From an uncultured Candidatus Saccharibacteria bacterium (lineage in GTDB: Bacteria; Patescibacteriota; Minisyncoccia; UBA6257; 1-14-0-10-44-23): a stretch of DNA of 64,000 bases. Under the pieces are notes generated by a model. It ran no database searches and was not told where the DNA came from. It saw nothing but the letters and a program-made list of their open reading frames with translations. The DNA lies in assembly GCA_964641225.1 (NCBI GenBank), contig CAZXKC010000004.1, positions 29,026-93,025 on the forward strand, read 5' to 3'. Position numbers and translations under genes: made by a program. The first letter of the stretch is position 1. The number at the start of each line of letters is the position of its first letter. This document shows, piece after piece, positions 17,820 to 49,355 of this stretch.

Positions 17820-17890
17820 CGGAATCCTCCAAGCTATTCTTGAAAACACCTACGCGGCGCATTCTTGAACAGCGGTAAGGCGGCTTTTGT

Positions 17891-25700: not shown

Positions 25701-25718
25701 AAATAAAATTAATAAACT

Positions 25719-27657: not shown

Positions 27658-30333
27658 ATGCCAGACCCGGTCATAAACTTATCCAATAAGATTCGGGAAA
27701 GCGGGAAATTCAATGAACGTTTTCTTGCGCTGCAAAAATATGCCGCTAAAAAGCGACTCACCTTTAGCGCTGAGGATGCAACCCCTGAACAACTGCAAAA
27801 ATTGATACTCCAAGCTTCGGTGCTTGCATTGAGCGATGACATTGAGCACAAACGTACAGCTCAAAAAATCATGGCCTTGTTCCACGAGATAAAGCCGGAC
27901 AATCATTTACTAAGCTACGCGATACAAATTTTAGCATCACGACTTGGAAATTTTCCTGTCGTAAGTAATGCATCCACAGTCTTTGGTGAATCCAAAATAT
28001 TTAAAGATGCTTCTGATGAGGCTTCGTTGGATACAGAGTATCTTTTTGACCCTGAAATAATCGCCAACTTATACTCTGAAGAGGCTCAGTCACGATTACA
28101 GATACAAGATAAGGTTTACCATTTTAATATTTTCCAGAAAGAAATACTTGATGCCCTGTCAGAGAAGGCGTTGGTGAGCTTTTCTGCTCCCACATCATTT
28201 GGAAAATCATTCATCGTTCGGCAGCACATAGCGCATCTATATGCTGGTCAGAAAGTTAAACGGGTCCTAGTACTTGTTCCTACCAAGTCCCTGATCGATG
28301 ATTTCTTTGCGGATTTTGTAAAAATAAAACGAGAGCTGAATCTTGATTTTGGCATTTTTACTCACGCCCGTTCCGTAGATGCGGTTCCGGAGAAGGCGGT
28401 ATTTATTCTGACGCAAGAACGGATATCATTCCTCATCACCAAGAATCCTGAATTTGTTAAGTCTTTTGACTTGATTTACTGCGACGAAGCCCACTACATC
28501 TCCAGAGGATATCGCGGATTTGTTTTGCGAAGTGCTCTGAAAAAACTTATCGAGCTGTGCGGAGTGGGCATCGAGGAGGGCAAGGCTCGATATATTTTCA
28601 GCTCCCCATTGATTAAAAATCCTGAGTACTACAAGGGGAAGCTATTTCCCTTACTTTCCTCAGAGCAATCGTTTCATAAAGAAATTCTCTATTCACCGGT
28701 CGAAAAGAATATCCATTTTATTGCCAAAGAAGAGCGGCAATTTAAGTATTATCTTTTGAAGGATTCTTTTGGTGAAGATTCATTCGATGATCGGCTGGAA
28801 GAGCTCGGTTCCAGAAATTTTCCCCAAGGATTAATGACCGAGGATACGAGAGCACAAAAAATCGACCGAGAGATTCGAATGGTTCTGGACTGCAGTGGGA
28901 CAAGCCCTTCAATCTTGTATACCACCAGCCCAATTTTCGCCCACAGATACGCCTTAGCATTGGCCGAGGCTCGACCGGAACGCAACCGAATATCTAGTCA
29001 AGAAATCGAGGATTTGAGCAGATACATTAAAGACCATTACGATGACAACTTTGGCCTAGTGAATATCTTAAAGAAGGGCATCGGCTTGCACTATGGGCCG
29101 ATGCCGACTGGGCTTCGGAGAGCAATGGTTGACCTCTTCGAGCGAGGCCTGATTGATTACATGGTTTGCACCCCAACTCTTCTTGAGGGGGTCAATCTCC
29201 CAGCAAAAAATATCTTTTTATTCTCTGATAGGTATGGAGGGCACGGTGGCAAAGAAAAACACTCGGCGCTATCTTTCTGGAACTTAGTTGGTCGAGCCGG
29301 CAGAATCACTTATGGTCTTTCTGGAAATGTATTCTGCATTGAAGATGAGCCTCAAAAATACGAAGACCTCTTCGAAAATACTGAAACCGAGATAACTGAC
29401 CCGGAGGCGAACGTCATGGAGAATGACACTCGGAGGAGTTACATTGTAAAAACTTTTCTTTCTGAAACTGATAGGTTTGACTATTTTCGGTCACATAGTC
29501 GAGGTGATATAGAATACCTAATATTTGAACTTTTGACCCGTGAAAATCCCGAACGAATCTTGGACAATTTCAATCTTAACCCCGAAGAAAAAGCTAGGAT
29601 GCTTGCTGCTATTCAGCAGCAGAGAGCGGAACTGAGCATATCGTTAGAGCTGGTCAACAAGAACCCTGGCATCGACCCGCGCTTGCAGGATAGATTGTTA
29701 GCCAATCTGCGATCGCTCCCAGAAGAAGAGCTTCGTGGTTACTTGGAAATTCCAGGTAATACTTTGGCAGTTACCGGTTCGCAGCTAGCAGATATCCTTG
29801 GGTACGTAAAACGGGATTTGGCCTGGCCAAAAAGGGATGAAAGCAGAACTGCGAACCGAATTATCCAGTGGCTACACGAACATCCTATTTCTTTTTTTAT
29901 TAACCAAGTTTTGCAATATATCGAACCGGGCAGCGAATTCGACACCCACTTGGGGAAGATTGAAAAAGCTATCGAAATTCTTCGGGAGGTTGACCGAGAG
30001 TTATCCTACAACGCTCCCAAATATCTTAAATGCTTCTACGATTTACTCATTCAAATCGCCGCTGAACAAGGGATTGCCGATATAAATATCTATGAGGAAA
30101 AAATTGAATCATTCCTATTTTCGCTCGAGTCAGGCGTCTCTTCTGTAATAGCAAAATTTCTCCTCGAGAAGGGTGTTTCAAGGCCAGTTGCCATACGAGT
30201 AAGCAGTTTAGTTGATGATATAGCTTCAATCCCAATCTCAAATGATTTTTTCGAGAAACCCGAAGTCCTCGAGAGATTGAGTCGCCTCTCAAAACTCGCC
30301 CTAGATGAGCTTAAGGAGCGACTCGGTGTTTAG
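27658..30333 (+). CDS. SF2 DExH-box helicase (Ski2/Hel308-like core), HamB-like
   Basis: Motif I SAPTSFGKSF, motif II LIYCDEAHYI, helicase C-terminal motifs GIGLHYGPMP...MVCTPTLLEGVNLPA, and a long C-terminal extension. Confidence 0.6.
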   Translation: MPDPVINLSNKIRESGKFNERFLALQKYAAKKRLTFSAEDATPEQLQKLILQASVLALSDDIEHKRTAQKIMALFHEIKPDNHLLSYAIQILASRLGNFPVVSNASTVFGESKIFKDASDEASLDTEYLFDPEIIANLYSEEAQSRLQIQDKVYHFNIFQKEILDALSEKALVSFSAPTSFGKSFIVRQHIAHLYAGQKVKRVLVLVPTKSLIDDFFADFVKIKRELNLDFGIFTHARSVDAVPEKAVFILTQERISFLITKNPEFVKSFDLIYCDEAHYISRGYRGFVLRSALKKLIELCGVGIEEGKARYIFSSPLIKNPEYYKGKLFPLLSSEQSFHKEILYSPVEKNIHFIAKEERQFKYYLLKDSFGEDSFDDRLEELGSRNFPQGLMTEDTRAQKIDREIRMVLDCSGTSPSILYTTSPIFAHRYALALAEARPERNRISSQEIEDLSRYIKDHYDDNFGLVNILKKGIGLHYGPMPTGLRRAMVDLFERGLIDYMVCTPTLLEGVNLPAKNIFLFSDRYGGHGGKEKHSALSFWNLVGRAGRITYGLSGNVFCIEDEPQKYEDLFENTETEITDPEANVMENDTRRSYIVKTFLSETDRFDYFRSHSRGDIEYLIFELLTRENPERILDNFNLNPEEKARMLAAIQQQRAELSISLELVNKNPGIDPRLQDRLLANLRSLPEEELRGYLEIPGNTLAVTGSQLADILGYVKRDLAWPKRDESRTANRIIQWLHEHPISFFINQVLQYIEPGSEFDTHLGKIEKAIEILREVDRELSYNAPKYLKCFYDLLIQIAAEQGIADINIYEEKIESFLFSLESGVSSVIAKFLLEKGVSRPVAIRVSSLVDDIASIPISNDFFEKPEVLERLSRLSKLALDELKERLGV

Positions 30334-30990: not shown

Positions 30991-31016
30991 AACCGCCCCC
31001 GAGCGGTTTTTTTGTT
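30991..31016 (+). terminator. Terminator-like hairpin (AACCGC-ccccga-GCGGTT followed by TTTTTTTG)
   Basis: Seen in the sequence. No plus-strand gene lies immediately upstream, so its function is uncertain. Confidence 0.2.
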
Positions 31017-31121
31017 TTCGCGATCTCGGGGGTATAGAGCAGCGTGTTTCTGAACGATCGTTCGTTCAGGCGCTGTAGAGGCCCCGGAGCCTCAAGAGTT
31101 CTTTGAAAGGAGAATAGCGTC

Positions 31122-31391
31122 ATGGCCACGATTCGCATTACTCAGGTTCTGGCTGGCGGGAAGATACTCGACCACGACTTCGCTGTGCCGGAGTCAGATC
31201 CGGTCGGTTTCGGCTGCTCCTGCGGGTTCATGCATCCCACATGCTGCGCCCGCGGCTGTGGGTGCATGCCGCAGATCCACCGCTACGTCAAGAAACTGCC
31301 TCACTCGTTGGAGTGGGGCGACCTGGTGGAGCGTCGTGGGAAGGTCGTGGCTGTGCCCGACAAGAAATCTGACGGTGGAGAGACGTACTAG
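31122..31391 (+). CDS. Small Cys-rich protein (high-GC cassette)
   Basis: Multiple CxxC/CC motifs (GCSCGFMHPTCCARGCGCMPQ). GC about 62%. Confidence 0.3.
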   Translation: MATIRITQVLAGGKILDHDFAVPESDPVGFGCSCGFMHPTCCARGCGCMPQIHRYVKKLPHSLEWGDLVERRGKVVAVPDKKSDGGETY

Positions 31392-31393
31392 CT

Positions 31394-31969
31394 GTGCGCG
31401 ACATCCTCGGCATCATCGCCGCAATCCTGACGCTCGCTGGGTTCATCCCGGCGGGCGTCGGAGCAGTACGCGGACCAGTTCGCCCAAGCAGGGCGACATG
31501 GCTCATCTGGGCGGCGGAGGCGGTACTCATCTACCAGACCTTCGCCGCCGCAACTCCGGACTCAAGCGCACTCTGGATTCCGCTGGGATTCACCGTAGGA
31601 GCGGCAGGGATGTTTCTCCTTTCGGTTTCATTCGGGGAGGCCGGGTGGAGTGCCCTCGACAAGTGGTGCCTGGCAGGAGCGGGTGGCACGATCATCGTCT
31701 GGCAACTCGTTGGACCTATCGCGGGGCTACTAGCTGGTATCGCTACCGACATGATCGGAGCGGTGCCGACGGTGGTCAAGACATGGAGAGATCCAAGTAG
31801 CGAAAGTCGTGCACAGTGGTTGCTTTGGTGGCTCGGTGCCATCTTCAACCTCTGCGCGATCAAAGACTGGCAATCCGTGGAGGCGGCGTACCCGCTCTAT
31901 GGAATTGTTCTGACAACTACAGTAGCCGGCATTATGGCCGGTAGAAAGAGGAAGTATGCCCAAGGCTAA
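31394..31969 (+). CDS. Polytopic membrane protein (high-GC cassette), paralogous to the native gene at 61801-62355
   Basis: GTG start. Shares ATWLIW...W...P...E...W(L/M) motifs and TM topology with the 61801 protein, although the two genes differ in GC by about 17 percentage points. Confidence 0.45.
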   Translation: MRDILGIIAAILTLAGFIPAGVGAVRGPVRPSRATWLIWAAEAVLIYQTFAAATPDSSALWIPLGFTVGAAGMFLLSVSFGEAGWSALDKWCLAGAGGTIIVWQLVGPIAGLLAGIATDMIGAVPTVVKTWRDPSSESRAQWLLWWLGAIFNLCAIKDWQSVEAAYPLYGIVLTTTVAGIMAGRKRKYAQG

Positions 31970-32519
31970 GGAAAAGGGATGGGTTCGTGCCCGCGACGAG
32001 AAGTACTACGTTGGCCAAGAGATCGACTTCACGGCCAACTACGACGACCACGCTCCCGAGGCGGTATTGAAGGCCATGTTCCACAACTACATGCCCGACA
32101 GGGCAGACGCCAAGTACGTGGACCTCAACCAGAAGGGCAAAAAGCCTCTCAGGGGCTACTGGTACTTCAAGGTCAAACTGCTCAACCCGTCTCGCGGTTT
32201 CTCGTACGAGGAGTCCGTAGAGTGGGCTCAGAGCTCGTACGTCGGGGGCAAGGGCGTAGTTCCCGGACATCTGGCGGTCGCCTTCGCCGAACAGTTCCCG
32301 CTCCTCGTCATGCTCGGCGACGTGAAGCTCACGGGAGGAATCTGGCGGCACGAGAACAGACTCACCTGCATCGAGCTCACCCAAGGCATCAACGGCAGCC
32401 AAGACATCCTCGCGTTCCGCTATCAGGACGGAGGAATGGTCTCGGATCACGACATCTGTCCGGTGATCATCGAGCAGGAGCAGATCGTGGTCCCGACTCG
32501 GAGAGGCCACGGCTACTAG
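31956..32519 (+). CDS. Hypothetical soluble protein (high-GC cassette)
   Basis: Protein-like composition. The overlapping minus-strand and Arg-rich alternative ORFs look like high-GC shadows. Confidence 0.35.
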   Translation: MPKAKEKGWVRARDEKYYVGQEIDFTANYDDHAPEAVLKAMFHNYMPDRADAKYVDLNQKGKKPLRGYWYFKVKLLNPSRGFSYEESVEWAQSSYVGGKGVVPGHLAVAFAEQFPLLVMLGDVKLTGGIWRHENRLTCIELTQGINGSQDILAFRYQDGGMVSDHDICPVIIEQEQIVVPTRRGHGY

Positions 32520-32575
32520 CCCACAGCACGCGCGGCGGCATCGACCCACAAGGTTGATGACCGCCGCGCTTCATT

Positions 32576-32980
32576 TTATACTTTGACGGTCTCGCGGTTC
32601 TGGAGTAAGGTTCGAACATCGTCTAACAGCTGCCGCACAGTAAGACTATCGGTATGTGTCAGCAGTAGATTGAAGGGAGAACGTAGCGTAAAATCTAGCT
32701 TCTTGCCATTCAGGACGCAGTTCTGAAGTAAGAAGCCCAAAAACTGGCGCTTTTCTTCAACTTCGGCACTATCAAATATCTCTTTTGCCCTCTTAGCGAT
32801 GTTAAGGGTCATATTTGCTGTGAGATAGAACTGCTCGTCGGCTTCCGAATGATCTTTCATTTGATCCAACACTTCGGCTTGCTTCTCTTTGTACTCTCTC
32901 AAGAAAGTGTCATACATTTCATCCGTAATCCGCCTTGATCTGCGGTAAATCCTAGCGTTTTTTATTTTGACCGACTCCAA
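32576..32980 (-). pseudogene. C-terminal fragment of a second large serine recombinase (remnant)
   Basis: Region TFLREYKEKQAEVLDQ...KRQFLGFLLQNCVLNGKKLDFTL resembles the conserved C-terminal coiled-coil region of large serine recombinases. No catalytic domain is present. Confidence 0.35.
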
Positions 32981-33071
32981 TAAAAGCTATACTATAAGCA
33001 TATCGTTTTTATAACAATTTAATGCAGTGAAGCCTAACCCGCGCGGGCAACCACGTGGTATGGCATCAAAT

Positions 33072-33185
33072 CCGGTAAAGGTCATTAAGCTCCTAGTCAG
33101 AGCTACCTTTACCGGTCATATCTGGAAACGGATATGGGTGGGCGCAAGCCCATCGCTGGCTAGGAGCTTTGTGATTTCTAGCCTG
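33072..33185 (+). ncRNA. Structured 5' leader RNA, copy 2, upstream of the 33201 operon
   Basis: Same four-helix architecture and conserved loops as copy 1, with different stem sequences (see copy 1). Confidence 0.45.
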
Positions 33186-33200
33186 TCTGAAATTAAAATT

Positions 33201-33878
33201 ATGGACAAGCAAAAAGAGAATGCCGCAATTAAGTTCTTTCGTAAGCATCCGATCCTTTCCTCAAATATAATCGGCATCATCCTCGGCATAGCGATAGCGT
33301 GGTGGCTCTGGCTTATTGCCTGCGTTCTCGGCTTTGTATTTTATTTCCACTACCAGAAAACACTGAAGCATGAAGTTGCCACAAATAAAGCGGCTAGCAA
33401 TGATGCCGTGAAAACCAAAAAGTGCCGTGCCTGCAAAATGGATATCGCGGCAGGGGCAACAAAATGTCCGCATTGCAGAACCGCTCAACCAAATAGCGTG
33501 GCGGCTGTATTTGGGCTATTTGGAATAATAGTTGCCGTTGTTGCCATCGTCGTTATTAGTAGTAATTCCGATACTTCCACGCCAACAAAGCAGAGCAAAT
33601 TAAATGATCCCACTATTGATTGGCAAAGTATCTGTTCAGCTTTTGACAATTTGAAAACGGCAAATATCGTCAAAAAAGTTGAGGGACGAAGTGTTTACGT
33701 TGCTCCTTTTTGGTGGAATGTGGCAAACATTGAAGATAAAAAAAATATTGGCTTTGGCTCTGCCTATTGCATCGCCCGCGACTTAAACTCAACGACTGTC
33801 TGGTCAGATATTTATGACTGGCAATCTGGCAAGAAATTAGCCCATTACAGTGAAGCGTGGGGCTTTTCAGTTGAGTAG
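33201..33878 (+). CDS. Membrane protein with a cytoplasmic CxxC...CxxC zinc ribbon
   Basis: The true start is the ATG at 33201 (MDKQKEN). The ORF-track start at 33027 would translate the leader RNA. Two TM helices flank CRACKMD...CPHCRT. Confidence 0.45.
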   Translation: MDKQKENAAIKFFRKHPILSSNIIGIILGIAIAWWLWLIACVLGFVFYFHYQKTLKHEVATNKAASNDAVKTKKCRACKMDIAAGATKCPHCRTAQPNSVAAVFGLFGIIVAVVAIVVISSNSDTSTPTKQSKLNDPTIDWQSICSAFDNLKTANIVKKVEGRSVYVAPFWWNVANIEDKKNIGFGSAYCIARDLNSTTVWSDIYDWQSGKKLAHYSEAWGFSVE

Positions 33879-33916
33879 TTTTCGCCGGCGAACACAATCG
33901 CTAAAATGGCGATTTC

Positions 33917-36900
33917 TTGATATGCTCAAAGGAAGACTTTGATAGAAAAGTTATGGATGGATTAGACCTCAATAAGTTTATTAAGTATTGTCTCGGCTAT
34001 ATTCAACTTACACGGCAGAGGGCTTTTGCGGTACAGCAAAAATCAGCAGTTGAGTTCCCAAAAAAGTACTTTGAACTTTCCGGCTTACTAAACGGCGAGG
34101 AGGACGATGCGCTAGGCGAGACAATTGCATTGCCGCTTTTTTATGATCTTGATCCTAAAGAAGTGAAGAAGGAGCAGAGGGATGAGTATGAAAAGCAAAA
34201 AATGTTTGCCGCAAAGATTGAAGATATCTATAACAAATATCGCAACGATCCTTTCACAAAACAAATAGCATTCAGTTTCGGTTATTTTGAAATTGAAATC
34301 CCAATTGAGCTTGAAGGCGAAGAGCTTGAATCAATTGAGAATGGAGAATCAGAGCCGCCGCCAAAGCAGGTAAAAATTGATCGCTACCCGCTCTTTAGTC
34401 TGATCGTGAAGATTGAAAAAGAAGAGAAGGGCAAGTATGTAGTCTACGCCGTGGATCAAGACATTCAGGTTAATCTTGGCGTACTTGAGCCAGTACTAGG
34501 CGAGAATCTTTATTACCAGTTATTAGATGACGTCGGCAAGAAAGAAATGGATGGGCTTTTTTCTTTGCCGCTCAAAAACATAGAAATCTTTACAGAGGTT
34601 TGGCACAAAATAAAGACAGTATTAAAACACACAAAGGCAAACTTTGATGAGGATTCTTTTAAGTTAGAAGAGATGCGCATTGCTATCGCACCTCGCGCTA
34701 ATTATTTTTTGGCAGAAGATTTACAGAAGCTCGCTAAGGTAGATCAGGATGCAATGAAGGATACATCGCTTTGCAGTTGGACGAGCAATGAAGGCATTAG
34801 CGGTACAAGTGAGATTCCTGAAGAGAAGGACCTATATTTTCCCTTCCTTTACGATAAATATAAGTTAAAAGTTCTATCGGTAATAAACAATAAAGGTGCG
34901 ATTGTTCAAGGACCGCCGGGCACTGGAAAATCGGAAACAATTGCTAACCTACTCTGTCATTTAGCCGCTCACGGCAAGCGCGTTTTATTTGTTAGCCAAA
35001 AAGCTCAAGCACTCAAAGTTGTAAAAGATAAGTTACGCAAACTAGATGTTAAATACCTCTTTGGTTATATCCCAAATCCAAGCTCGGCACAGCTTGGCGA
35101 AGATGACGAGGCTGATAGTATATCGCCGCAACTCGCCGGCCTTGGAGCGCATATTGATTCAATGGGTTATAAGTTTTATCCCCGAAAAGCAGGGATTGCC
35201 CAGCACGGCGACGGTGTCAGCGGGAACGTATCGCTAGCGCATCCTACGGCTTTAAAAGCAAAGCTAAAAAATGACTTCAACCAAACTATTGAGGTGCAAC
35301 GCAAGGCGTGGAAATTGGATCAAGAGTTTAAGGCTCTAGCCCTTTTTGATTTGCCGGTCGGAAATCCTAGCGCATTCACTAGTAATTTTAGCGAAAGTAA
35401 CCGCAAAGAAGTTAATCATCTGAAAGACGTAATCTCAAGCGCAATCAAGACGACGCAGAAATATGACGAAAGCGAATCTAAAAATGGTTTTGATGGTCTG
35501 TTCGGAAAAATAAATCTTCGGGAAAAGAGTTTCGCTACTGCTACTTATAAAATCAAAGAAGACATCGCCCGTTCGGGATTTGACGGACACGCACAGATGC
35601 TACGAGGCATAAATAATTTTATGCGTAATATGCGGCTGGGAGGCGTTCGTTCGGAATTGCCCCGCGAGGTTAGAGATTACATTGACCAAGAGTTAAAAAA
35701 GGACATCTCGCGCAATGATGCTTGTAAGCTCTTTGAAGACCTACACGTTTATTTTTGCCACCACGAAAATCTTATCAATCTTGAACAGGCAAAAAAGAAG
35801 CTATCGGCTACTTTAGAAGCTATAGGTTTGTCCGATAAAGAGTTTGGAGCAATAGAAGAGGTCATTGGAAAAACTGGTGAAAATGTTACGGACGTTAAGG
35901 AAAAAGTTTTGAGAACGAGGGTACTTCGGAAAGAACTACACGAGCTTGGCAAGCTGGGCGTTAATCCAAACGACGTAACTGAAAACATCAAAGATGCCGA
36001 AACGGAACGCAGGGATCGCGTGGCTTTATATCTCCAGAACATCGTCAATAGAAACATCCTAGAAAAGCTCGCGCAAGGACCAACGATTCGGCAGATTGTA
36101 GCTCGCTTGGCAAAAGCATTCGGCAAATCAAAGCGTGCGTTTAGGACATTTGATAAACTTCGCAAAGATCCTGATAACTTCAATGCCATTATGGACTTGA
36201 TTCCAGTCTGGATTATGGAGCTAGATGATGCCAGCCGCATCATTCCGCTTGAAGCCGGCGTGTTTGATTACGTCATTCTGGACGAGGCTTCACAGTGCAA
36301 TGTAGCATATACCCTCCCTGTTATGTTCCGTGCCAAGCAAGCCCTATTCGTGGGCGATAGCGAGCAGATGCGCGACAGTACGGTAATGTTTAAGTCCAAC
36401 CGATCCTTTGACGAATTGGCGCGTCGTTATGGTGTTCCCGAAGAAATGCAGATCAAGGCTAGCCAAGCAACTGTTCAGTCGGTTCTAGACATAGCTACTC
36501 TCCGAGGATTCCTGCCAGTACCGCTACGTTACCATTACCGCTCGCCGAACGAGCTAATTGGCTTCAGTAACCAGTATTTCTATAAACCCAAGTCAAAGGA
36601 CCTTATAGCCCTCAATAACACTTATTTGACCTACAAGGACACTAATCGTGTGATGCTTGTCCACGAAGTGAAGTCAGATTGGTCAGATGAGATTTCTGAC
36701 AACGCTAACGTTGCTGAAGCAAGTGAGATTCTAAAGCTTTTTAAGGAGCTACGTGATGATGCCAAATATGCTAGAAAATCAGTGGGCATTTTAACATTCT
36801 TCAACGCGCAAGCCGCTTTATTGCGTAAAACTTTTGAAGATGCCGGTTTTAAAGAAGATGAAGATAATTTCAAAATCAGCATCATTGAGGGCATTCAAGG

Positions 36901-37516
36901 CGACGAAAAGGATATCGTTATTTACTCCTTTGTTATCCGTAGTCCAGAACAAAAGAAACGCTACTTGCCGCTGACCGGTGAAGGAGGCGATATACGCGGC
37001 GATATCAATCGCGGCAGAGTAAACGTTACCTTCTCGCGCGCCAAATTGCAGGTCCATTGTTTTATCAGTATGCCAATAACGGCATTACCCGAAGGCATTT
37101 GGATCAAAAAATATCTTGAGTACGTGCAAAAGCACGGCGAGGTAGATTTCTACGCAACAGAGCTTCGCCCCTTTGATTCATATTTTGAAGAAGAGTTTTA
37201 CGCACTTTTGAAAGCAGGTTTGAAGAAAGATTATCAAATCCGGAATCAAGTTGAGAGCTGTGGTTTTAAGCTGGATTTTGCCGTCACCAACACACGGACG
37301 GGCAAACAGATCGCTATTGAGTGTGATGGTCCAACTCATTTTGAAGACGAACTTGATGAAGAGTACGGTATTTATGTTGAGGATGACGAAGAGCGTCAGC
37401 GCGTTTTAGAGTCAGCCGGCTGGACCTTCTATCGCGTCAAATACCTTGACTGGCTCAATGAATCGTTTGATCGTAAAGCGGTAATAAAAAACCTTATTAA
37501 GTTAATGGATGATTAA
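33917..37516 (+). CDS. Upf1/Dna2-like SF1B helicase fused to a C-terminal DUF559/Vsr-like restriction-endonuclease-fold domain (Nhi-like architecture)
   Basis: Motif I IVQGPPGTGKSE, motif II YVILDEASQC, motif III GDSEQM, motif V/VI IEGIQGDEKDIVIYSF and NVTFSRAK. C-terminal IAIECDGPTHF...GWTFYRVKYLDW resembles the DUF559 core. Confidence 0.65.
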   Translation: MICSKEDFDRKVMDGLDLNKFIKYCLGYIQLTRQRAFAVQQKSAVEFPKKYFELSGLLNGEEDDALGETIALPLFYDLDPKEVKKEQRDEYEKQKMFAAKIEDIYNKYRNDPFTKQIAFSFGYFEIEIPIELEGEELESIENGESEPPPKQVKIDRYPLFSLIVKIEKEEKGKYVVYAVDQDIQVNLGVLEPVLGENLYYQLLDDVGKKEMDGLFSLPLKNIEIFTEVWHKIKTVLKHTKANFDEDSFKLEEMRIAIAPRANYFLAEDLQKLAKVDQDAMKDTSLCSWTSNEGISGTSEIPEEKDLYFPFLYDKYKLKVLSVINNKGAIVQGPPGTGKSETIANLLCHLAAHGKRVLFVSQKAQALKVVKDKLRKLDVKYLFGYIPNPSSAQLGEDDEADSISPQLAGLGAHIDSMGYKFYPRKAGIAQHGDGVSGNVSLAHPTALKAKLKNDFNQTIEVQRKAWKLDQEFKALALFDLPVGNPSAFTSNFSESNRKEVNHLKDVISSAIKTTQKYDESESKNGFDGLFGKINLREKSFATATYKIKEDIARSGFDGHAQMLRGINNFMRNMRLGGVRSELPREVRDYIDQELKKDISRNDACKLFEDLHVYFCHHENLINLEQAKKKLSATLEAIGLSDKEFGAIEEVIGKTGENVTDVKEKVLRTRVLRKELHELGKLGVNPNDVTENIKDAETERRDRVALYLQNIVNRNILEKLAQGPTIRQIVARLAKAFGKSKRAFRTFDKLRKDPDNFNAIMDLIPVWIMELDDASRIIPLEAGVFDYVILDEASQCNVAYTLPVMFRAKQALFVGDSEQMRDSTVMFKSNRSFDELARRYGVPEEMQIKASQATVQSVLDIATLRGFLPVPLRYHYRSPNELIGFSNQYFYKPKSKDLIALNNTYLTYKDTNRVMLVHEVKSDWSDEISDNANVAEASEILKLFKELRDDAKYARKSVGILTFFNAQAALLRKTFEDAGFKEDEDNFKISIIEGIQGDEKDIVIYSFVIRSPEQKKRYLPLTGEGGDIRGDINRGRVNVTFSRAKLQVHCFISMPITALPEGIWIKKYLEYVQKHGEVDFYATELRPFDSYFEEEFYALLKAGLKKDYQIRNQVESCGFKLDFAVTNTRTGKQIAIECDGPTHFEDELDEEYGIYVEDDEERQRVLESAGWTFYRVKYLDWLNESFDRKAVIKNLIKLMDD

Positions 37517-37521
37517 ACTTC

Positions 37522-38172
37522 GTGGAAGAAATCTTGTATAGAACATACGCAAAGGTTGGAGCTTTCTTTACTGGTTCTCAAAGAAGGTATTTGTTTTACT
37601 CTATAGCTTTAATGGGACTAGCTATCGCCTTATTGTCTGGATTTTATTTTCAATTCAACATTGGAACTGAAACCCTATCTCTCATTTTTAACTCAATTGT
37701 TCAATCGCTTATAGCATTGGTTGGTCTTATGGCTGTAGTAGTCGTTTTTAAGTACCAGAGTATGGCAACACGGGAAGATCGGCTTTTAGAAGAACTGAAT
37801 AAGACGACTTCAGATCTTGCAATGCTCGGCGGAAATCTAAACGCAACCTCTGGAGAAGATTTAATTAACAATATCAATCCGCACGTACCCAAAACGCCAA
37901 CTGCTAATGACGGATTTAGAACTATTAAACTCAGGCGAGTTAAGCAGGAGTTGGAAGCTCATAATTTTTTGAAAACATTTTTAGGAGATTATATGATTAA
38001 AATGAGTATTTATGGTTTTACTATAGTTTTATTAAGCTTCCTAGCTCTAATTTTCGTCCCCTACTTTTCACAGCACTATTATCTAGCAATCAGTAGTCTG
38101 TATGTCTCATTATTCTTCGTTGCTGATATACTACGGCTAGTAATCAAGATTATCGCCGAAGCCGTATCTTAA
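37522..38172 (+). CDS. Four-TM membrane protein
   Basis: Hydrophobic helices at the N- and C-termini. Follows the helicase-nuclease gene by 6 nt. Confidence 0.4.
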   Translation: MEEILYRTYAKVGAFFTGSQRRYLFYSIALMGLAIALLSGFYFQFNIGTETLSLIFNSIVQSLIALVGLMAVVVVFKYQSMATREDRLLEELNKTTSDLAMLGGNLNATSGEDLINNINPHVPKTPTANDGFRTIKLRRVKQELEAHNFLKTFLGDYMIKMSIYGFTIVLLSFLALIFVPYFSQHYYLAISSLYVSLFFVADILRLVIKIIAEAVS

Positions 38173-38178
38173 AACTTT

Positions 38179-38652
38179 ATGGACGCTGAATACGTTAAGA
38201 ATCTAATCAAGGGGAAAATTGCCGAAATTATCTTTGAGCAGATGTTTAGGGAGTCTGGGAAATACACCATACTTCATTCCGGCTATGAGTATACGCTTCC
38301 AGAGCTAGCGCAATATGGTCATCTGGCGGAAGTGAAAGCAGTTATGGAAAATATCCGCAATGCGCCGGATTTTATTCTTATCTCGCAGGATCACAAAGAA
38401 GTTCATTTGGTTGAGGTCAAATACCGCCGTCATCGCGATTCAAAAAACTTAAAAGAAGTTGTCGGCAAGACTCTAGAAATCTGGAATCCTTCTTGGTTAT
38501 TCGTTGCTTCGCCGGATGGATTTTTCTTTGAACCCTGTAATACAGTATTGAAAAATGATGGTAAGATTGGCGCACTCTACGAGAAATGGGTTGATCCCTC
38601 TATTCAAGCTCAATACCTAAAACTCCTGAATAAGTTTGAGCCGACATCCTAA
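38179..38652 (+). CDS. Small PD-(D/E)xK-fold nuclease-like protein
   Basis: PDFILISQDHKEVHLVEVKYRR gives a D...E-V-K arrangement. Overlaps the next gene by 17 nt. Confidence 0.35.
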   Translation: MDAEYVKNLIKGKIAEIIFEQMFRESGKYTILHSGYEYTLPELAQYGHLAEVKAVMENIRNAPDFILISQDHKEVHLVEVKYRRHRDSKNLKEVVGKTLEIWNPSWLFVASPDGFFFEPCNTVLKNDGKIGALYEKWVDPSIQAQYLKLLNKFEPTS

Positions 38653-39229
38653 GAGTATGGAGAAAACTGACCGATTTCAAAAACTGGTACAGCTCATTCA
38701 AGCAAAAGTATCTACTAATAAACTATTTGTAATTGGTATCTGCGGCTTCGGTGGTGCTGGGAAAACGACGACAGCCCATATGCTTGCCGAATTATTAGGC
38801 AACGCTAGCGTAATTAACGTGGATGACTTTATCGTAAATCGGCTCAAAGAGCGTTCAGCTGATTGGGATGGATTTGACTGGGAACGATTAGAAAAGGAGG
38901 TCCTTGAACCAATCAGGCAAGGTAAGACTACGATCACTTATGGCATTTACGACTGGAAGTCCGACAGCACCCCAGAAACAAAGACTTTAAGCTTAGAGAA
39001 GTACGTCATTCTTGAAGGTGTCGGTCTTTTTAAGCAAGAGTTCAAAAAGTACTTTGATTTCTTGGTATACGTTGATGTCCCGCATCATATTGCCCTAGAA
39101 CGTGGGAAGAAGCGCGACATACAAGACCATTGGGCTCTCTGGGATGATCTTTGGTCAAAGAATGACCACGACTACCACGAGAAGCATAAGCCTAAGGAGC
39201 AGGCTGATTTTATTCTTGAGAATAGCTAA
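38636..39229 (+). CDS. P-loop nucleoside/uridine-kinase-like protein
   Basis: Walker A IGICGFGGAGKTTTA and a lid-like YVILEGVGLF. Resembles the Udk/zeta-toxin kinase fold. Confidence 0.45.
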   Translation: MSRHPKSMEKTDRFQKLVQLIQAKVSTNKLFVIGICGFGGAGKTTTAHMLAELLGNASVINVDDFIVNRLKERSADWDGFDWERLEKEVLEPIRQGKTTITYGIYDWKSDSTPETKTLSLEKYVILEGVGLFKQEFKKYFDFLVYVDVPHHIALERGKKRDIQDHWALWDDLWSKNDHDYHEKHKPKEQADFILENS

Positions 39230-39326
39230 TTTGTCTTAGTTGCAAAATACCGCTAAACTCAATTTCTTGTTTAATATGACCCCAATCAACAGTTCTGAAC
39301 GCATCTAACCACTCCCGCCAGAAACA

Positions 39327-39352
39327 ACACCCGCTGCATAGCGGGTGTTTTA
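39327..39352 (+). terminator. Rho-independent terminator after the kinase-like gene
   Basis: ACACCCGCT-gcat-AGCGGGTGT followed by TTTT. Confidence 0.5.
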
Positions 39353-40585: not shown

Positions 40586-40870
40586 ATGGCCACACAACAA
40601 TTACCAGAGGGCACACCATTTCAGCAACAAGTCTGGGCGGCCTTACTGACTATCCCGCGCGGGCAGACCAGGACGTATGCGCAGATAGCGGCGCAAATTG
40701 GCAGGCCAACATCAGCACGCGCAGTGGCAAATGCCTGCGGTGCAAATCCACATCCAATTGATATTCCCTGCCACAGAGTGATTGCCTCAGATGGATCGCT
40801 CGGCGGCTACTCAGGAACCGGCGGCGTCAAAACAAAAATCAAGCTGCTTAAGAAAGAAGGCGCCCTCTAA
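40586..40870 (+). CDS. MGMT-family (O6-alkylguanine-DNA alkyltransferase DNA-binding domain) protein
   Basis: IPCHRVIASDGSLGGYSGTGGVKTKIKLL (PCHR active-site motif). Confidence 0.6.
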   Translation: MATQQLPEGTPFQQQVWAALLTIPRGQTRTYAQIAAQIGRPTSARAVANACGANPHPIDIPCHRVIASDGSLGGYSGTGGVKTKIKLLKKEGAL

Positions 40871-41089: not shown

Positions 41090-42019
41090 TTATTTCGTAG
41101 CCGGACGCGGCGGGTATAGATCCATATCGATCATGCGCGTAAAGCAGGTTTGCCCGGCGCCATGCACCCAGGTTTCATTTCCAGCACCGGTGATTGGTTT
41201 AACCATACCGGTTGAATCGGTCGCCTGCAGGCTAAATGTGGCGCAGACTTCAAACGAGGTGTTACCTGTTTTTTTATAGCCATACGCAGCACCCTCTGGA
41301 TCCACCGGAACCATATAGCCGCTAATTGGATCATTTAACTGATCAAGAGAGGCCGGAAGCATTTGCTTACTTTGCCAATAATTTACGAGCTGCCACTGAA
41401 TAGTTTGCAGATCACTAACCCGCTGCATGTCATACTGTCGCTGACGCGCCGTTGTTGGTGAGCCGACAATAAAGAATCCGCCAATGATCGTGATGGCAAC
41501 AAGGGCAATTGATATATAGCGGAAAATCATTCTGCTGGGCGCATGCTTACCTGCGTCACGGCGCAGCTCGTAGTAGTAATATCCCCAGACAAGACCGCTA
41601 ACAACAGCAACTGCGAGTACCTTTAAGAAAAAGGTCAATGCAAATTCGCCCGAGAGGAATTGATAGAGTAACGCAATGACATCAATAATCAAAGCAAGGC
41701 TTGCCAGAGCAAGCGTTAGATACATCATCCACTTGCGAATCCGCAGATCTTTTTTCTCAGGGTGCTTTGCCAGATCGCGATTAATAAATCGAGTCACTAA
41801 AACATATACCGGAAATACAATTACCAGGCTGGCGATTGCCCAGCGCATTGAACCGCTAAACCAGGCAGAGCCGCCATAATAATAGCCGCCGGTAGAACCA
41901 AAGGCGAAATTAATATAGTCGTACAACAGGCTGACTAACCAACCTGCACAGTAATACAGAAATAAATTTGAGAGCACCTGCAGGAAAAAGTCCCGCGGAG
42001 AGGTTTTAATGTGTTCCAT
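41090..42019 (-). CDS. Polytopic membrane protein with a C-terminal pilin-like region
   Basis: Multiple TM helices. C-terminal motif QRQYDMQRVSDLQTIQWQLVNYW resembles type IV pilin/pseudopilin globular domains. Confidence 0.35.
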   Translation of the reverse strand: MEHIKTSPRDFFLQVLSNLFLYYCAGWLVSLLYDYINFAFGSTGGYYYGGSAWFSGSMRWAIASLVIVFPVYVLVTRFINRDLAKHPEKKDLRIRKWMMYLTLALASLALIIDVIALLYQFLSGEFALTFFLKVLAVAVVSGLVWGYYYYELRRDAGKHAPSRMIFRYISIALVAITIIGGFFIVGSPTTARQRQYDMQRVSDLQTIQWQLVNYWQSKQMLPASLDQLNDPISGYMVPVDPEGAAYGYKKTGNTSFEVCATFSLQATDSTGMVKPITGAGNETWVHGAGQTCFTRMIDMDLYPPRPATK

Positions 42020-42126
42020 ATGGTTTTAGTATAAGACGCTTTTGTGTATTTGACCATTACGTCTAACGAGGGTATAACGAAGCTACGGTTTAGCGCGTAT
42101 TAGGTAATACGCCAGCCGACGAAAGG

Positions 42127-42315
42127 ATGGTTACCGTGGAGGTAGCAAAGCTCGACAGAATGGTGGCTCGTCATCTGGGTCGCGGCAGAAGCGCTCAGGT
42201 GATCGCATCACAGATCGGTGTGCCGATCGAAGACGTCGAGGCATCGATCGCCCGACTCAAGGCGGCGGAGACGTCGCCGCAGGAACCCGCAACGCCTGAC
42301 GCGGAGAAGACCTAG
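42127..42315 (+). CDS. Small HTH-like protein in a high-GC (about 63%) patch
   Basis: RSAQVIASQIGVPIEDVEASIARLK resembles a sigma-70 region-4 or LuxR-like HTH. Confidence 0.3.
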   Translation: MVTVEVAKLDRMVARHLGRGRSAQVIASQIGVPIEDVEASIARLKAAETSPQEPATPDAEKT

Positions 42316-42627
42316 ATGGGCAACGCTACAATGCCCGTCGTGACCGACTGCCGCCACCCGGACCTGTACGGAGACGTCAGCGGATGCGTATTTTGTGAGC
42401 CCTGTCCGGACTGCACCATGCGGATTCCGGTCGAGCATCGGAACGCGCACGAGCGATCACATCGCCCCGCGCCGGCTAGACCTCCTCTGTCCGAGAATTT
42501 CATCGAGCAGGCCAGCGCAGATGCGGCAGCACTGAATCCGGAAAACGACCCACTCATCAATCAGGCTCAGGAGGCGGCCCGGCCTCGGACCGGTGCCGAA
42601 GGCGGCGCCACAATGAGCCCTGAGTAA
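42316..42627 (+). CDS. Small Cys/His-rich protein in the same high-GC patch
   Basis: CRHPDLYGDVSGCVFCEPCPDC, zinc-finger-like. Confidence 0.3.
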   Translation: MGNATMPVVTDCRHPDLYGDVSGCVFCEPCPDCTMRIPVEHRNAHERSHRPAPARPPLSENFIEQASADAAALNPENDPLINQAQEAARPRTGAEGGATMSPE

Positions 42628-42680
42628 GATGAGGGCCACGCACCACATAGGACCACGGAAGCCCGTGGTCCTTCACATTT

Positions 42681-43376
42681 TTAGGCCTTTTTTGAATGAT
42701 GCGACTGGATAGTGTCGGAGACAATAATCCCATCTTTAAGCATGATAACGCGGTGTGCTTTTCGCGCATACTCTTCTTCGTGCGTCACCATCACAATTGT
42801 CTGACCGCTCTTATGCAGATCCAAGAAGGCATCGATAACCGGACCGGCACTCGCCGAGTCTAAATTGGCGGTTGGCTCGTCGGCAAACAAAATATGCGGG
42901 TCGTGTGCAATCGCGCGCGCAATGGCCACACGCTGCTGCTGACCGCCCGAGAGCTGGCTCGGCTTGTTACTCAATTTATCTAATAAGCCTACGCGATCAA
43001 GCGCCTTCTTGGCCTTTGCTTCAGCTACTGGTTTTGCTATCTGCTGCACAAGCATAGGCAGCATCACATTTTCCAGTGAGGACAGTTCGGGTAGTAGTGC
43101 ATAATCTTGAAACACATATCCAAGCTTACTCAGTCGAAGTGCCGTCTTTTGAGTTTCGTTCATACCGGCAGTACGTACGCTGTCTAAATAAATTTCACCG
43201 GCTGTTGGCGCGTCAAGTAAAGAAAGCTGGTAGAGCAACGTTGACTTACCTGCTCCAGATGGCCCGATAATGGCGACAAATTCACCGTCTTTAATCGTTA
43301 AATCAAGGTGCTTAAGCACCTTGACCTCCAGCTCACCTTTTCCATAACTTTTTACTAATCCTTTTGCTTCGATCAT
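42681..43376 (-). CDS. ABC transporter ATP-binding protein (MacB/LolD-type)
   Basis: Walker A GPSGAGKST, ABC signature LSGGQQQRVAIARA, Walker B ILFADEPT. Confidence 0.85.
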   Translation of the reverse strand: MIEAKGLVKSYGKGELEVKVLKHLDLTIKDGEFVAIIGPSGAGKSTLLYQLSLLDAPTAGEIYLDSVRTAGMNETQKTALRLSKLGYVFQDYALLPELSSLENVMLPMLVQQIAKPVAEAKAKKALDRVGLLDKLSNKPSQLSGGQQQRVAIARAIAHDPHILFADEPTANLDSASAGPVIDAFLDLHKSGQTIVMVTHEEEYARKAHRVIMLKDGIIVSDTIQSHHSKKA

Positions 43377-43377
43377 A

Positions 43378-44688
43378 TTATCGTCCTAAAATTGCGTCGA
43401 GCGTGTTGCGACGCACAATTAATTTTGCAGGAATGTATCCGGCAATCAGGGTAACCACGAGCAAGATAATCACACGAATCGCCGCGCCATCAGGCGTGGC
43501 CACCAAAATACCATCAGAAAACGGAAAATCAATCGGGTGACCGGCAAAATACGGCTTAAGCAGTCCAAAGGTCAGGGCAAGTCCGATTGCTGAACCGATG
43601 ATACCGTAAAACATCGCCTGGAAAATATACGAAAATTCAATAATCATAGGCGTGATTCCAATACCCTTCATGATGCCGATAAATTTACGCCGGGTAATTG
43701 CGTTAATAAAGACGACGATGAAAATCGTGATCGAAGCTACAATCAGCGCGATCGATGAGAGCGCATTACCCAAAATACCGAATGTAGTCTCAACATCACG
43801 CAAAAACGAGGGCACGGCATCGCTAGCCGTCTGAATACGCGCTGCATAACCGTCCATAAAGGCAGTGAGCTCGCTCACCAGTGTCGGACCATACGAGGCG
43901 GGCGTTGTCAGTATTGCGATCTCCTGAAGCTGCTCCTGATTGACCGGCAGCATGCGCTTAAGCTCTTTGTCGGTAATAAACATACGCGTTGAGATCTGGT
44001 CCACCTTACTCTTAACAATCCCTTTGATAATAAAATCTTTAGCAATTTTATTGCCATCAGCGCTTGTTATTGAAACGCGCACACGACTACCTACATCGAC
44101 ATTAGTCAGCAAATCAAGTCCGGGAATATTTGCGTCGGCAAATGAAGAATATTTTTTAATCATATTTGCGCCAATGAGCGCATATCCCTCCTGAGAATCA
44201 GTGATCATATCGCCAAATTTTACAAACCGCGAAAACCCGGTCGCCACCTCTTCTTTAGCCAAATCAATTCCAACGAGCTGGACGCCGATTTGATTACGGC
44301 GCTCGCCTTTTGCCGGCAAATCATCAAGCGTCCCAAGCACCTGTGCCGAAGCCGTGTGACGCGGCGAAATTGCCGCGACGTGCGGGTGATGTTCTAAAAA
44401 CGAAATAAGGGCCGGTGAATTTTCAATATAATTTTTTTGCGCCGCCGAGGTAACAATCACGTCGCCTGCATAACTTGAACTAAATTGCGCAAAAGAACCC
44501 GCAATCAGTCCGACAAGCAGCCCGGAGACAACCACAAGGTTAAGGAAGGTCAGCACCATGATAAAGATAATTAACCCGGTCGTCCCCTTACTGGAATGTC
44601 GAATGCTGCGCACAGCTAAAAACCAGCCGACACGAACTGCGTTACGATAGCGAGAAAGTGTATGTGAAAACCACTTCAGCAGAGCCAT
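43378..44688 (-). CDS. ABC transporter permease (FtsX/MacB-like)
   Basis: N-terminal TM helix, large periplasmic domain, C-terminal FtsX-like 3-TM bundle. Confidence 0.7.
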   Translation of the reverse strand: MALLKWFSHTLSRYRNAVRVGWFLAVRSIRHSSKGTTGLIIFIMVLTFLNLVVVSGLLVGLIAGSFAQFSSSYAGDVIVTSAAQKNYIENSPALISFLEHHPHVAAISPRHTASAQVLGTLDDLPAKGERRNQIGVQLVGIDLAKEEVATGFSRFVKFGDMITDSQEGYALIGANMIKKYSSFADANIPGLDLLTNVDVGSRVRVSITSADGNKIAKDFIIKGIVKSKVDQISTRMFITDKELKRMLPVNQEQLQEIAILTTPASYGPTLVSELTAFMDGYAARIQTASDAVPSFLRDVETTFGILGNALSSIALIVASITIFIVVFINAITRRKFIGIMKGIGITPMIIEFSYIFQAMFYGIIGSAIGLALTFGLLKPYFAGHPIDFPFSDGILVATPDGAAIRVIILLVVTLIAGYIPAKLIVRRNTLDAILGR

Positions 44689-44693
44689 ATGCT

Positions 44694-46229
44694 CTATTGG
44701 GTGCCAACAATAATACTCTGACCAACCTCTAATCCGCTGATCACCTCGACATCGCCGACATTACCGCGCAGCCCGATAGTAACCGGAATTTTGTTCGGCT
44801 CCGCGCCCTCTGCACCCTGCGTACGCACGAATACGCCATCGGTGGTCATAGTCAGCGCGCGCTGAGGAATAACCACTACGTCCTGATGGCGATTTGTCGT
44901 AATTACAATATTGGCCGTCATACCAGAGCGAATGTGCTCATCAAGCTTAGCAAAGGTAAAGGTTGTTTTATACGTTGCAACGCCATCGACAATCGTCTCA
45001 GCCGGGTCAATCTCGCTCACTGTTGCCTCAAAGGCGGCACCATTCTTGTATGCATCAAGACCAATACTGGCCGCATCACCGACTTTAATCTTAGCAATAT
45101 CCACCTCTGGAATATTTGCAGTAACCTCTAATCCGCCCTCGCCGATAAGGTAATAGGCCTGATCAGTCGTAGTGACTAATTCGCCCACCTGCTTGCTTTT
45201 TACAGCAATAGTACCGGAAAACGGAGCGCGCAAATATGCCTCGGAAAGATTTTGCTGAGCAATCTCAAAATCCGCCTGCGCTTTTTCAAGATTTGCCTGC
45301 GCGGTGCGGTATGAGGCACCTGAAGAATTTACGTTAAGACTATTTTTCACCTTAGTATCTGCAAGCGTCGAAGAAGTTGTCGACTGCTTAGAAATTGCCG
45401 AATTTAAGTTTGTCTGCGCGGTTGAGAGCGAGTCTTTATATGACTGGAGAGTCGAGGCGCTCATCGAGCCGGCGGGTATGGCAGCGACCGCATTGATGAG
45501 CATCGTCAAACTCGATTTTATTTTTCGAAGCGGATCGGCAATTTTAAGAAGTGTCGCGTCAACTTGTTCACGCGTTGCATTTGACGGGAAATTTTCCGCA
45601 GCGGCACGCAGCACAATCACGGCGTCATCAGCGGTTTGCTTGCCATTATTTGCATCTAGAATCAATTGGCTCGTTAAAATCTGATTTGCAATGGTGCCAT
45701 TTAACCGATTTCCTGTGTCATAAAATGACACAATGGTCGCATATGACTGCTGCGTAAGGTTAACAATATCAGCAATTGTCTGCGGTGCATCAGCATACAG
45801 CAGGGTCAGAGACTGATTGTTCTTAATGCTCGTATCGCCAACATCTTGGTTGCTATTTTCAAGGGCGACTTGTGCGGTGACCAGATTTGCGCGCGCCTTA
45901 GTCACCTCTTTATTTAGCGATGAGGTATCCAGCGAGGCTAATGCCTGACCGGCAACGACCGTATCACCAACGTCAACGTTTGTACGCGCAATCACGCCGC
46001 TAATCTTAAAACGCAGCGAGGCATAGCTCTTTGGTTTAATCTGTCCGGTTGCAGCAACCGTCTCAGTAACAGTGCCGCGGGTAACCGTGGCTGTTTCATA
46101 GACCACCGGCTTGCTCTTACCAAAGAGTACATATATCAATGCAATTACGACAACGAGATATACTACGCGACGAACCCACTTTTTTGCCCAGATAGTTTTC
46201 AAACGATTTTTCATCCCGTACGAGATCAA
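44694..46229 (-). CDS. Periplasmic adaptor (HlyD/MFP-like) for the efflux ABC system
   Basis: N-terminal TM helix, long coiled-coil, beta-barrel-like C-terminal domain. Confidence 0.55.
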   Translation of the reverse strand: MISYGMKNRLKTIWAKKWVRRVVYLVVVIALIYVLFGKSKPVVYETATVTRGTVTETVAATGQIKPKSYASLRFKISGVIARTNVDVGDTVVAGQALASLDTSSLNKEVTKARANLVTAQVALENSNQDVGDTSIKNNQSLTLLYADAPQTIADIVNLTQQSYATIVSFYDTGNRLNGTIANQILTSQLILDANNGKQTADDAVIVLRAAAENFPSNATREQVDATLLKIADPLRKIKSSLTMLINAVAAIPAGSMSASTLQSYKDSLSTAQTNLNSAISKQSTTSSTLADTKVKNSLNVNSSGASYRTAQANLEKAQADFEIAQQNLSEAYLRAPFSGTIAVKSKQVGELVTTTDQAYYLIGEGGLEVTANIPEVDIAKIKVGDAASIGLDAYKNGAAFEATVSEIDPAETIVDGVATYKTTFTFAKLDEHIRSGMTANIVITTNRHQDVVVIPQRALTMTTDGVFVRTQGAEGAEPNKIPVTIGLRGNVGDVEVISGLEVGQSIIVGTQ

Positions 46230-49334: not shown

Positions 49335-49355
49335 CCACTGCAGGGCCGAACTACT

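Follow-up and report, generated by a model that had tools for sequence, protein, structure and literature searches.

The window analysed here is a 64,000-nucleotide (nt) stretch of contig CAZXKC010000004.1 from an uncultured Candidatus Saccharibacteria bacterium. At positions 33201–39229 it carries five tightly packed plus-strand open reading frames (ORFs), g1 to g5, with a structured RNA on their 5′ side and a strong terminator on their 3′ side. An original prediction, made from the sequence alone, had taken the five products for the components of one defence system. Our comparisons point elsewhere. The structured RNA is a copy of the LOOT RNA (Rfam RF03000), and beyond the source organism the five gene families were found apart from one another, save for one distant pairing. 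We consider it probable that the locus is a LOOT-led transcription unit in which independently distributed cassettes have been stacked together, rather than one five-gene machine, and that it forms part of a horizontally acquired defence and mobile-element island, together with a serine recombinase beside a tRNA gene and another LOOT-led operon, which codes for Hachiman.

The operon is headed by a 220-nt divergent intergenic region, where a consensus scan found a sigma-70-like site, TTGACC-17-TACTAT (32967–32995, plus strand), as the putative promoter. It lies 5′ of LOOT copy 2 (33031–33154, plus strand), which forms the 5′ leader. The first gene, g1 (33201–33878, 225 amino acids (aa)), starts at an ATG nested in a longer GTG ORF that opens at 33027. 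The g2 ORF opens at TTG 33917 (1199 aa); its homologues all begin at ATG 33953, including a database copy of the same protein (P0001, 1187 aa), so g2 occupies 33953–37516 (1187 aa) and the g1–g2 gap is 74 nt, not 38. Next come g3 (37522–38172, 216 aa) after 5 nt and g4 (38179–38652, 157 aa) after 6 nt. The g5 ORF opens at TTG 38636 (197 aa). Homologues of g5 start 8–12 residues past this point, which makes ATG 38657 the likelier start and places the gene at 38657–39229, with a g4–g5 gap of 4 nt and no 17-nt overlap. An intrinsic terminator (39326–39349, plus strand) with a 10-bp stem, six GC pairs, a 4-nt loop and a T-rich tail closes the operon.

Much of the anatomy in the original prediction was borne out. 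All five packed ORFs are present, the strong terminator lies at the operon end, the leader is common to the upstream operon, and that operon, described as Hachiman-like, is a true Hachiman. The products are, as it had said, a zinc-ribbon membrane protein (g1), a Upf1-like helicase with a C-terminal DUF559/Vsr-like nuclease (g2), a four-transmembrane protein (g3), a PD-(D/E)xK protein (g4) and a Udk-like P-loop kinase (g5). Its spacings of 38, 5 and 6 nt and its 17-nt overlap follow from the ORF coordinates; the first and the last give way to the revised starts.

Both window leaders are full-length LOOT RNAs. Copy 2 scored 89.4 bits over the full Rfam model (1–121) and copy 1 (25551–25670, plus strand), which heads the Hachiman operon, scored 83.5 bits over the full model, both well above the Rfam gathering score of 46.4 bits. 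Against R2, a covariance model built in this analysis, copy 2 scored 113.8 bits. Covariance models were built from the copies recovered, of which there are 16. Two are the window copies, eight come from loci fetched for their g2 or g4 homologues, and six lie on IMG/VR contigs; a degenerate pattern located these six, and each was confirmed at 72–95 bits. A second-round model recovered no additional copies in the fetched loci. Besides the window, the LOOT loci are L003, L007, L015, L081, L095, L118, L137, L155 and L166–L171. The motif folds into several helices with strong covariation: across the 16 copies, in an alignment that was fitted to the model, 94.6% of cells pair and compensatory changes occur in 32 of 38 pairs, a very large margin over slid controls, which reached at most 42%. 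Conserved sequence reaches past both Rfam boundaries, as ACAATTKAAT on the 5′ side and as a hairpin with a GGRGCUUUGUG loop on the 3′ side. At the five-gene operon this 3′ extension spans 33155–33196 (plus strand), where the hairpin is followed by an A/U-rich linker up to the start of g1, and it is a direct repeat of 25668–25712. The literature we found on LOOT makes passing mention of its covariation only.

Rfam types LOOT as a small RNA (sRNA; class 'Gene; sRNA'), whereas the copies collected here stand as promoter-proximal 5′ leaders of variable cargo. A same-strand ORF lies 3′ of all 16 copies, with its start codon 34–76 nt past the Rfam 3′ end in at least 14 and no terminator between. A −10-like box sits a few nt 5′ of the conserved ACAATTKAAT in 16 of 16. 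Both window copies are placed in divergent intergenic regions, and near anchor genes the strand of LOOT is that of the anchor in ten copies out of ten. Taken together, the same-strand ORFs, the −10-like box, the constrained start distance and the divergent intergenic placement suggest that LOOT behaves as a promoter-proximal 5′ leader rather than as the free-standing sRNA that its Rfam type implies. We think it unlikely that LOOT is a separately transcribed, trans-acting sRNA that merely lies 5′ of an operon whose own promoter falls between LOOT and g1. The Rfam class speaks for such an sRNA, as does the stable hairpin just past the Rfam 3′ boundary, which is predicted in 12 of the 16 copies. 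However, no U-run follows this hairpin, the 20–45 nt left before the start codon give no space for a promoter, and a promoter scan of 33155–33200 found no promoter-like site. The unbroken association with same-strand ORFs, at a constrained distance in most copies, also speaks against a trans-acting RNA.

The cargo behind LOOT varies across the 16 copies and includes Hachiman, a type IIG restriction-modification enzyme, PDC-S11/S18, g2, g4 and surface proteins. Window copy 1 leads into a 145-aa protein and two small membrane ORFs, then into HamA (26625–27656, plus strand; Pfam HamA 97 bits, PADLOC 105 bits) and HamB (27658–30333, plus strand; PADLOC 396 bits over the full length). These lie 1 nt apart and form the adjacent pair of DUF1837 HamA and HamB helicase by which Hachiman is recognised. 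Elsewhere, LOOT is followed by a type IIG restriction-modification enzyme (1173 bits) and a g4 homologue (L095), by PDC-S11, PDC-S18 (343 bits) and then a 36%-identical g2 relative (L015), or by small membrane proteins and a g2 orthologue (L003). Four loci (L081, L118, L137 and L155) have a g4 homologue as the first gene, 35–72 nt past LOOT. The six IMG/VR copies lead into small membrane proteins, a secreted protein that binds peptidoglycan, a protein with collagen repeats and one nuclease of the PDC-S11 type. The label that suits LOOT cargo best is accessory genes, often ones related to defence. Small non-homologous membrane or zinc-ribbon proteins are seen early in several LOOT-led operons, like g1 in the present one; examples are window positions 26171–26362 and 26367–26615, L003 8260–9008, L007 9826–10339 and L137 2181–3581.

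To compare gene content, we collected 73 genome loci that contain g2 relatives, taking at most 10 kb of flank on each side, 17 of which hold g2 orthologues, and 80 metagenome loci around g4 homologues. Profile hidden Markov models for g2–g5, and phmmer for g1, were then run over all ORFs of about 124 loci (17 for g2, 80 for g4, seven each for g5 and g3). No pair of the five families occurred together in these loci, with two exceptions. The first, L001, is a second assembly of the same organism and shows the same five-gene arrangement. The second is L087, where a 26%-identical helicase–nuclease is convergent to a g4 homologue. By tblastn with g1, g3, g4 and g5, no match was found beside any of the 17 g2 orthologues, and none of the 80 g4 loci holds g1, g3, g5 or a g2 orthologue. 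Close homologues each sit in a context of their own. In L075, a 77%-identical g2 is solitary, with a divergent DUF3800 gene on one side and the transfer-messenger RNA (tmRNA) gene with smpB on the other; an 87%-identical g4 adjoins an unrelated 497-aa gene; and an 86%-identical g5 has a SocA_Panacea gene, a 141-aa gene and GrpB as neighbours. Indirect evidence comes from a 98,005-bp contig bearing an 82%-identical g2, on which the g4 and g5 homologue listings place no match. The families of a conserved multigene system would be neighbours in unrelated genomes, and in the loci from other organisms these five are not.

Several points weigh against reading the locus as stacked, independent cassettes. 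A co-operating set could also show tight packing with one promoter and one terminator, and a partnership peculiar to this lineage would be compatible with absence elsewhere. For g1 and g3 the test of independence is weak, as the fetched data contain no g1 homologue and every g3 context recovered is a contig under 2.6 kb. The matches of g2 to validated defence proteins are only partial, and its orthologue in L075 is surrounded by housekeeping genes. As to the cargo, just one defence-like gene was seen among the six anchor-free IMG/VR copies, and since the other loci come from sampling anchored on g2 and g4, the defence share of LOOT cargo is inflated.

A smaller, lineage-specific partnership, for example of g2 with g1 and g3, or of g4 with g5, the remainder being passengers, strikes us as quite unlikely. 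It could account for the short gaps at g2–g3 and g3–g4 (5–6 nt) and at g4–g5 (about 4 nt), and for the recurrence of non-homologous small membrane and zinc-ribbon proteins in LOOT-led operons (L003, L007, L137 and that of window copy 1). The g4 homologue next to a distant helicase–nuclease in L087 is also in keeping with it. Yet no homologous pairing recurs elsewhere, the downstream partners of g2 orthologues are varied or absent, and the closest g4 homologues have no g5 immediately 3′. We retain the reading in which the cassettes are independent, and turn to the proteins themselves.

The g2 protein comprises an N-terminal family-specific domain (residues 1–312), a superfamily 1B (SF1B), Upf1-like helicase, and a C-terminal MTES_1575/DUF559 (Vsr-like) endonuclease; the chain ends about 10 residues past the nuclease. 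Pfam matches are to AAA_11 (2e-13), AAA_12 (9e-23), MTES_1575 (1.6e-15) and DUF559, and among solved structures IGHMBP2 and Upf1 come closest. Helicase motifs I and II are separated by a 450-aa insert. All five motifs quoted in the original prediction (GPPGTGKSE, DEASQC, GDSEQM, QGDEKD and NVTFSRAK) are found in the translation, with core residues that do not vary across 24 homologues. The N-terminal region of about 300 aa, which had been called uncharacterised, is a conserved 312-aa domain without a Pfam match (12 N-terminal domains searched at E ≤ 1) or a PDB fold match. The family has roughly 2000 members; among the best 120 homologues listed, identities are 52–82%, and nearly all are about 1190 aa long and match over their full length. 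Orthologues at 53–61% identity occur in metagenome-assembled genomes labelled Saccharibacteria, Magasanikiibacteriota, Moranbacteria, Omnitrophota, Bdellovibrionales and Nitrospiraceae, and one at 49% in a Babeliales-labelled genome. Relatives on plasmids are DUF3320/DUF4011 proteins of about 26% identity, none of which covers 80% or more of g2. The protein thus joins a complete SF1B motor to a Vsr-like endonuclease, and has spread horizontally, usually without the other four genes.

Among PADLOC and NCBIfam models, only residues ~755–1190 of g2 align, to PDC-S37, Hhe and ProA. These are likewise single large proteins with an SF1B/Upf1-like helicase (AAA_11/AAA_12) followed by a C-terminal Vsr-like MTES_1575/DUF559 endonuclease, and Hhe is reportedly a single-gene defence described by Gao et al. 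in 2020. The helicase core followed by a Vsr-like/MTES_1575 endonuclease is a trait of Hhe that g2 shares. However, the models are 1550–1911 residues long against about 1190 aa for g2, and the DUF4011 N-terminal and DUF3320 C-terminal domains of the Hhe type were not found in g2 (Pfam at E ≤ 0.1, N-terminal domains at E ≤ 1). Against Hhe (NF042953, PDLC02194), g2 scored 165.1 bits, with residues 756–1194 aligned to profile positions 1255–1681 of 1797, where the equivalog cut-off is 2000; against ProA (NF058533) it scored 223.3 bits over residues 755–1185 only, where the cut-off is 1500. The match to the PADLOC candidate PDC-S37 (PDLC05009) has an E-value of 1.5e-72, but its best stretch covers only profile positions 911–1332 of 1550 and falls short of full length. 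Our search for literature on ProA and PDC-S37 found nothing usable.

Three further systems invite comparison. The original prediction had likened g2 to Nhi, which is also a single fusion of a nuclease with an SF1 Upf1-like helicase. The nuclease of Nhi is N-terminal and differs in fold from that of g2. The contrast it had drawn stands, as the g2 nuclease is C-terminal; the resemblance itself is weaker than that to Hhe, ProA and PDC-S37, as there is no Nhi model among the eight PADLOC matches at E ≤ 0.1. With MkoA and MkoC of Mokosh, the helicase core alone aligns (80–89 bits), short of full-length membership, and no Mokosh companion gene was seen with g2. Hachiman (HamAB), whose genes lie behind the other LOOT copy 7.5 kb upstream, follows the same helicase-plus-nuclease logic, but uses an SF2 DEAD-box-type helicase with a separate DUF1837 nuclease subunit in place of an SF1B fusion. 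These comparisons suggest that g2 is a variant of the Hhe/ProA/PDC-S37 kind of helicase with Vsr-like nuclease and a member of none of the three. By analogy with them, a defence role for g2 is plausible.

The g4 protein carries the motif E16...P63-D64...E79-x-K81, invariant or nearly so in 24 homologues. Its AlphaFold model (predicted local distance difference test score, pLDDT, of 89) matches PD-(D/E)xK nucleases, and the protein shows what places a sequence in that superfamily, the E...PD...(D/E)xK signature on an alpha-beta-beta-beta-alpha-beta core. We found 345 homologues among 5.8 billion proteins, at 40–87% identity. The family is apparently centred on Patescibacteria and highly conserved; named homologues of g2 and g4 are mostly from Patescibacteria, for which candidate phyla radiation (CPR) is another name. 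Neighbours of g4 vary, the sole recurrent one being a GmrSD_N plus HNH enzyme in 4 of the 80 loci. This enzyme (PADLOC REase_II, 258 bits) lies directly 5′ of the g4 homologue on the same strand in L088 (2656–3825), L127, L130 and L154. At L087 (2759–5648), a 75%-identical g4 homologue is convergent with the distant (26%) SF1 helicase with a DUF559-type nuclease, about 116 nt apart. It is only the second adjacency of g2-type and g4-type genes, and the only one beyond the source organism.

The P-loop kinase g5 matches the Pfam PRK/uridine-kinase family (3.3e-11). Its P-loop GxxGxGKT, DDF, EGVG and RGxxRD lid are intact, as in the Udk/PRK family, and the best PDB match is a member of that family, 1rz3 (4e-16), followed by uridine kinases and phosphoribulokinases. 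Family cut-offs are far from reached: the best NCBIfam model, PRK07667 'kinase', gave 81.2 bits (cut-off 221), and udk TIGR00235 gave 45.4 bits (equivalog cut-off 220.3). Just 30 homologues were found. The suggestion that g5 might be a zeta-toxin-like effector found no support, as g5 scores 15.5 bits against Zeta_toxin PF06414, through the P-loop only, where the gathering score is 22.3. On five contigs a 43%-identical copy and the start of polA overlap, with RuvABC in the neighbourhood, and a 55%-identical copy adjoins infC-rpmI-rplT. As most relatives with readable contexts are in such housekeeping surroundings, g5 is likeliest to be a nucleoside/nucleotide-kinase-like enzyme of the salvage type.

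These assignments bear on a non-immune explanation, in which the locus is a DNA-maintenance operon of a reduced genome: g2 would be a repair or recombination helicase–nuclease in the style of DNA2 or AddAB, g4, whose fold resembles Hjc, would be a resolvase-like nuclease of repair, and g5 would be a salvage kinase. We judge this decidedly unlikely. The patchy occurrence of g2 and g4 across phyla at 55–87% identity indicates horizontal transfer, both are associated with recombinases, an integrase, Hachiman, PDC-S11/S18, a type IIG restriction-modification enzyme and GmrSD-like genes, and the scarcity of g4 homologues in the protein collection does not suit a maintenance function. Very improbable is the single novel multi-component defence system of the original prediction (a helicase–nuclease as sensor, a further nuclease, a kinase acting as effector or modifier, and a pair of membrane components), for although tight packing, a shared promoter-like site and terminator, a nearby Hachiman operon and the repeated arrangement in L001, which is the same organism, can be cited in its favour, no two of the families come together in the loci of other organisms and close homologues of g2, g4 and g5 each lie in differing contexts. 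Lack of gene-neighbourhood conservation had been named there as an argument against such a system, and it is what we observed. The operon does not belong in catalogues as a new five-gene defence system; a false lead is thereby removed.

The two membrane proteins are the least informative members of the operon. In g1, two strong hydrophobic segments flank a CxxC...CxxC (C4) zinc ribbon, and a 100-aa domain forms the C-terminus. Its matches are a weak one to Pfam Zn_ribbon_3 and weak ones to unknown families in PHROGs, and phmmer found no homologue in the fetched loci except L001. Four hydrophobic segments make up the g3 protein, whose small family has 36 full-length representatives among 1.84 billion proteins. 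The three g3 homologues that could be placed lie on contigs under 2.6 kb and none of them adjoins g2, g4 or g5; they follow an HTH_24 gene and a 149-aa gene, or a 225-aa transmembrane protein. Neither g1 nor g3 gave an informative family match in Pfam, PADLOC, NCBIfam or PHROGs, or a relative in viral contigs. We infer that they are passengers or local accessories.

The setting of the operon is that of a mobile region. A large serine recombinase of 534 aa (21186–22790, minus strand; Pfam Resolvase, Recombinase and Zn_ribbon_recom) abuts tRNA-Ser (21113–21198), a possible boundary of a mobile element, and g2 is located 3.6 kb downstream of Hachiman. A homologous serine recombinase lies within 4 kb of the g2 orthologue in 4 of 17 loci (L002, L005, L007 and L015), and in L003 the orthologue is carried by a tyrosine-integrase island adjoining a tRNA. 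Orthologues in several phyla, defence-type relatives and nearby recombinases together indicate that g2 is horizontally mobile cargo. No att-like direct repeats of tRNA-Ser were found as ends of the window island, where the sole meaningful repeats are the two LOOT copies. An ORF at 32576–32980 (minus strand) was considered as a C-terminal fragment of a large serine recombinase, an idea that was dropped because searches gave neither a Pfam, PHROG or phage match nor any resemblance to the recombinase of the window. In L075 (13665–13996) the 77%-identical g2 orthologue lies immediately 5′ of tmRNA and smpB. Genes for tmRNA are classic integration sites, and such a site may be the reason for a solitary g2 among housekeeping genes there.

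We envisage the locus working as follows. A single transcript would run from the promoter-like site through a LOOT leader of about 150 nt and the five ORFs to the terminator, and LOOT most likely controls, in cis, the expression of whichever cargo lies 3′ of it. The core element would be g2, a self-sufficient single-protein helicase–nuclease. By analogy with Hhe, ProA and PDC-S37, it would load on foreign or aberrant nucleic acid, translocate 5′→3′ with ATP and cleave foreign or aberrant DNA through its C-terminal Vsr-like nuclease, with the N-terminal family-specific domain as a putative sensor or regulator. The g4 protein would act as a separate small nuclease, one that elsewhere appears to be expressed alone from its own LOOT leader, and g5 would be a salvage-type kinase.

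Tentatively, and with less confidence than we place in the stacked arrangement itself, we speculate that LOOT is a cis regulatory leader, riboswitch-like or bound by a protein or tRNA, that travels with and gates mobile accessory cassettes of Patescibacteria and of their mobile elements and phages. The operon would then be one instance of a 'LOOT + cargo' platform, and ultra-small bacteria would have, in the g2 and g4 families, two immune nucleases that each work alone. If LOOT is such a sensor leader, immune and accessory cassettes would here be controlled at the level of RNA, as is rarely seen, and the motif would offer a handle for discovering further such cassettes in uncultivated bacteria; an orphan Rfam motif gains a functional context in any event. 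To our knowledge, very little of the immunity of Patescibacteria has been characterised. The g2 family, a widespread helicase–nuclease of ~1190 aa with a new N-terminal domain, is a testable single-gene candidate from this group, and the very conserved 157-aa PD-(D/E)xK protein g4 is a second.

The region has a GC content of about 40–45%, 12 tRNA genes are scattered over the window, and its genes include a DUF5671 protein. With named g2 and g4 homologues that come mostly from Patescibacteria, these features point to a Patescibacteria metagenome-assembled genome as the probable host. Patches of 1–2 kb each with 55–62% GC, against ~40–50% elsewhere, occur at 8001–10000, 17001–18000, 31001–32600, 42001–43000, 49001–50000 and 57001–58000, and look like recent horizontal acquisitions from high-GC donors. 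One of them encodes adenylosuccinate lyase (8125–9582, minus strand); the patch between the two LOOT operons (31122–32557) has three ORFs without a family match. Further downstream, on the 3′ side of an ABC/FtsX/HlyD export cluster (42681–46229), an 825-aa protein (46819–49296) with weak matches to TrwB/VirD4 coupling-protein and HerA-type ATPase domains may be the remnant of a conjugative or secretion system. Lastly, a 94-aa ORF at 40586–40870 encodes a stand-alone DNA-binding domain of O6-methylguanine-DNA methyltransferase (Pfam, 124 bits) with a PCHRV motif.

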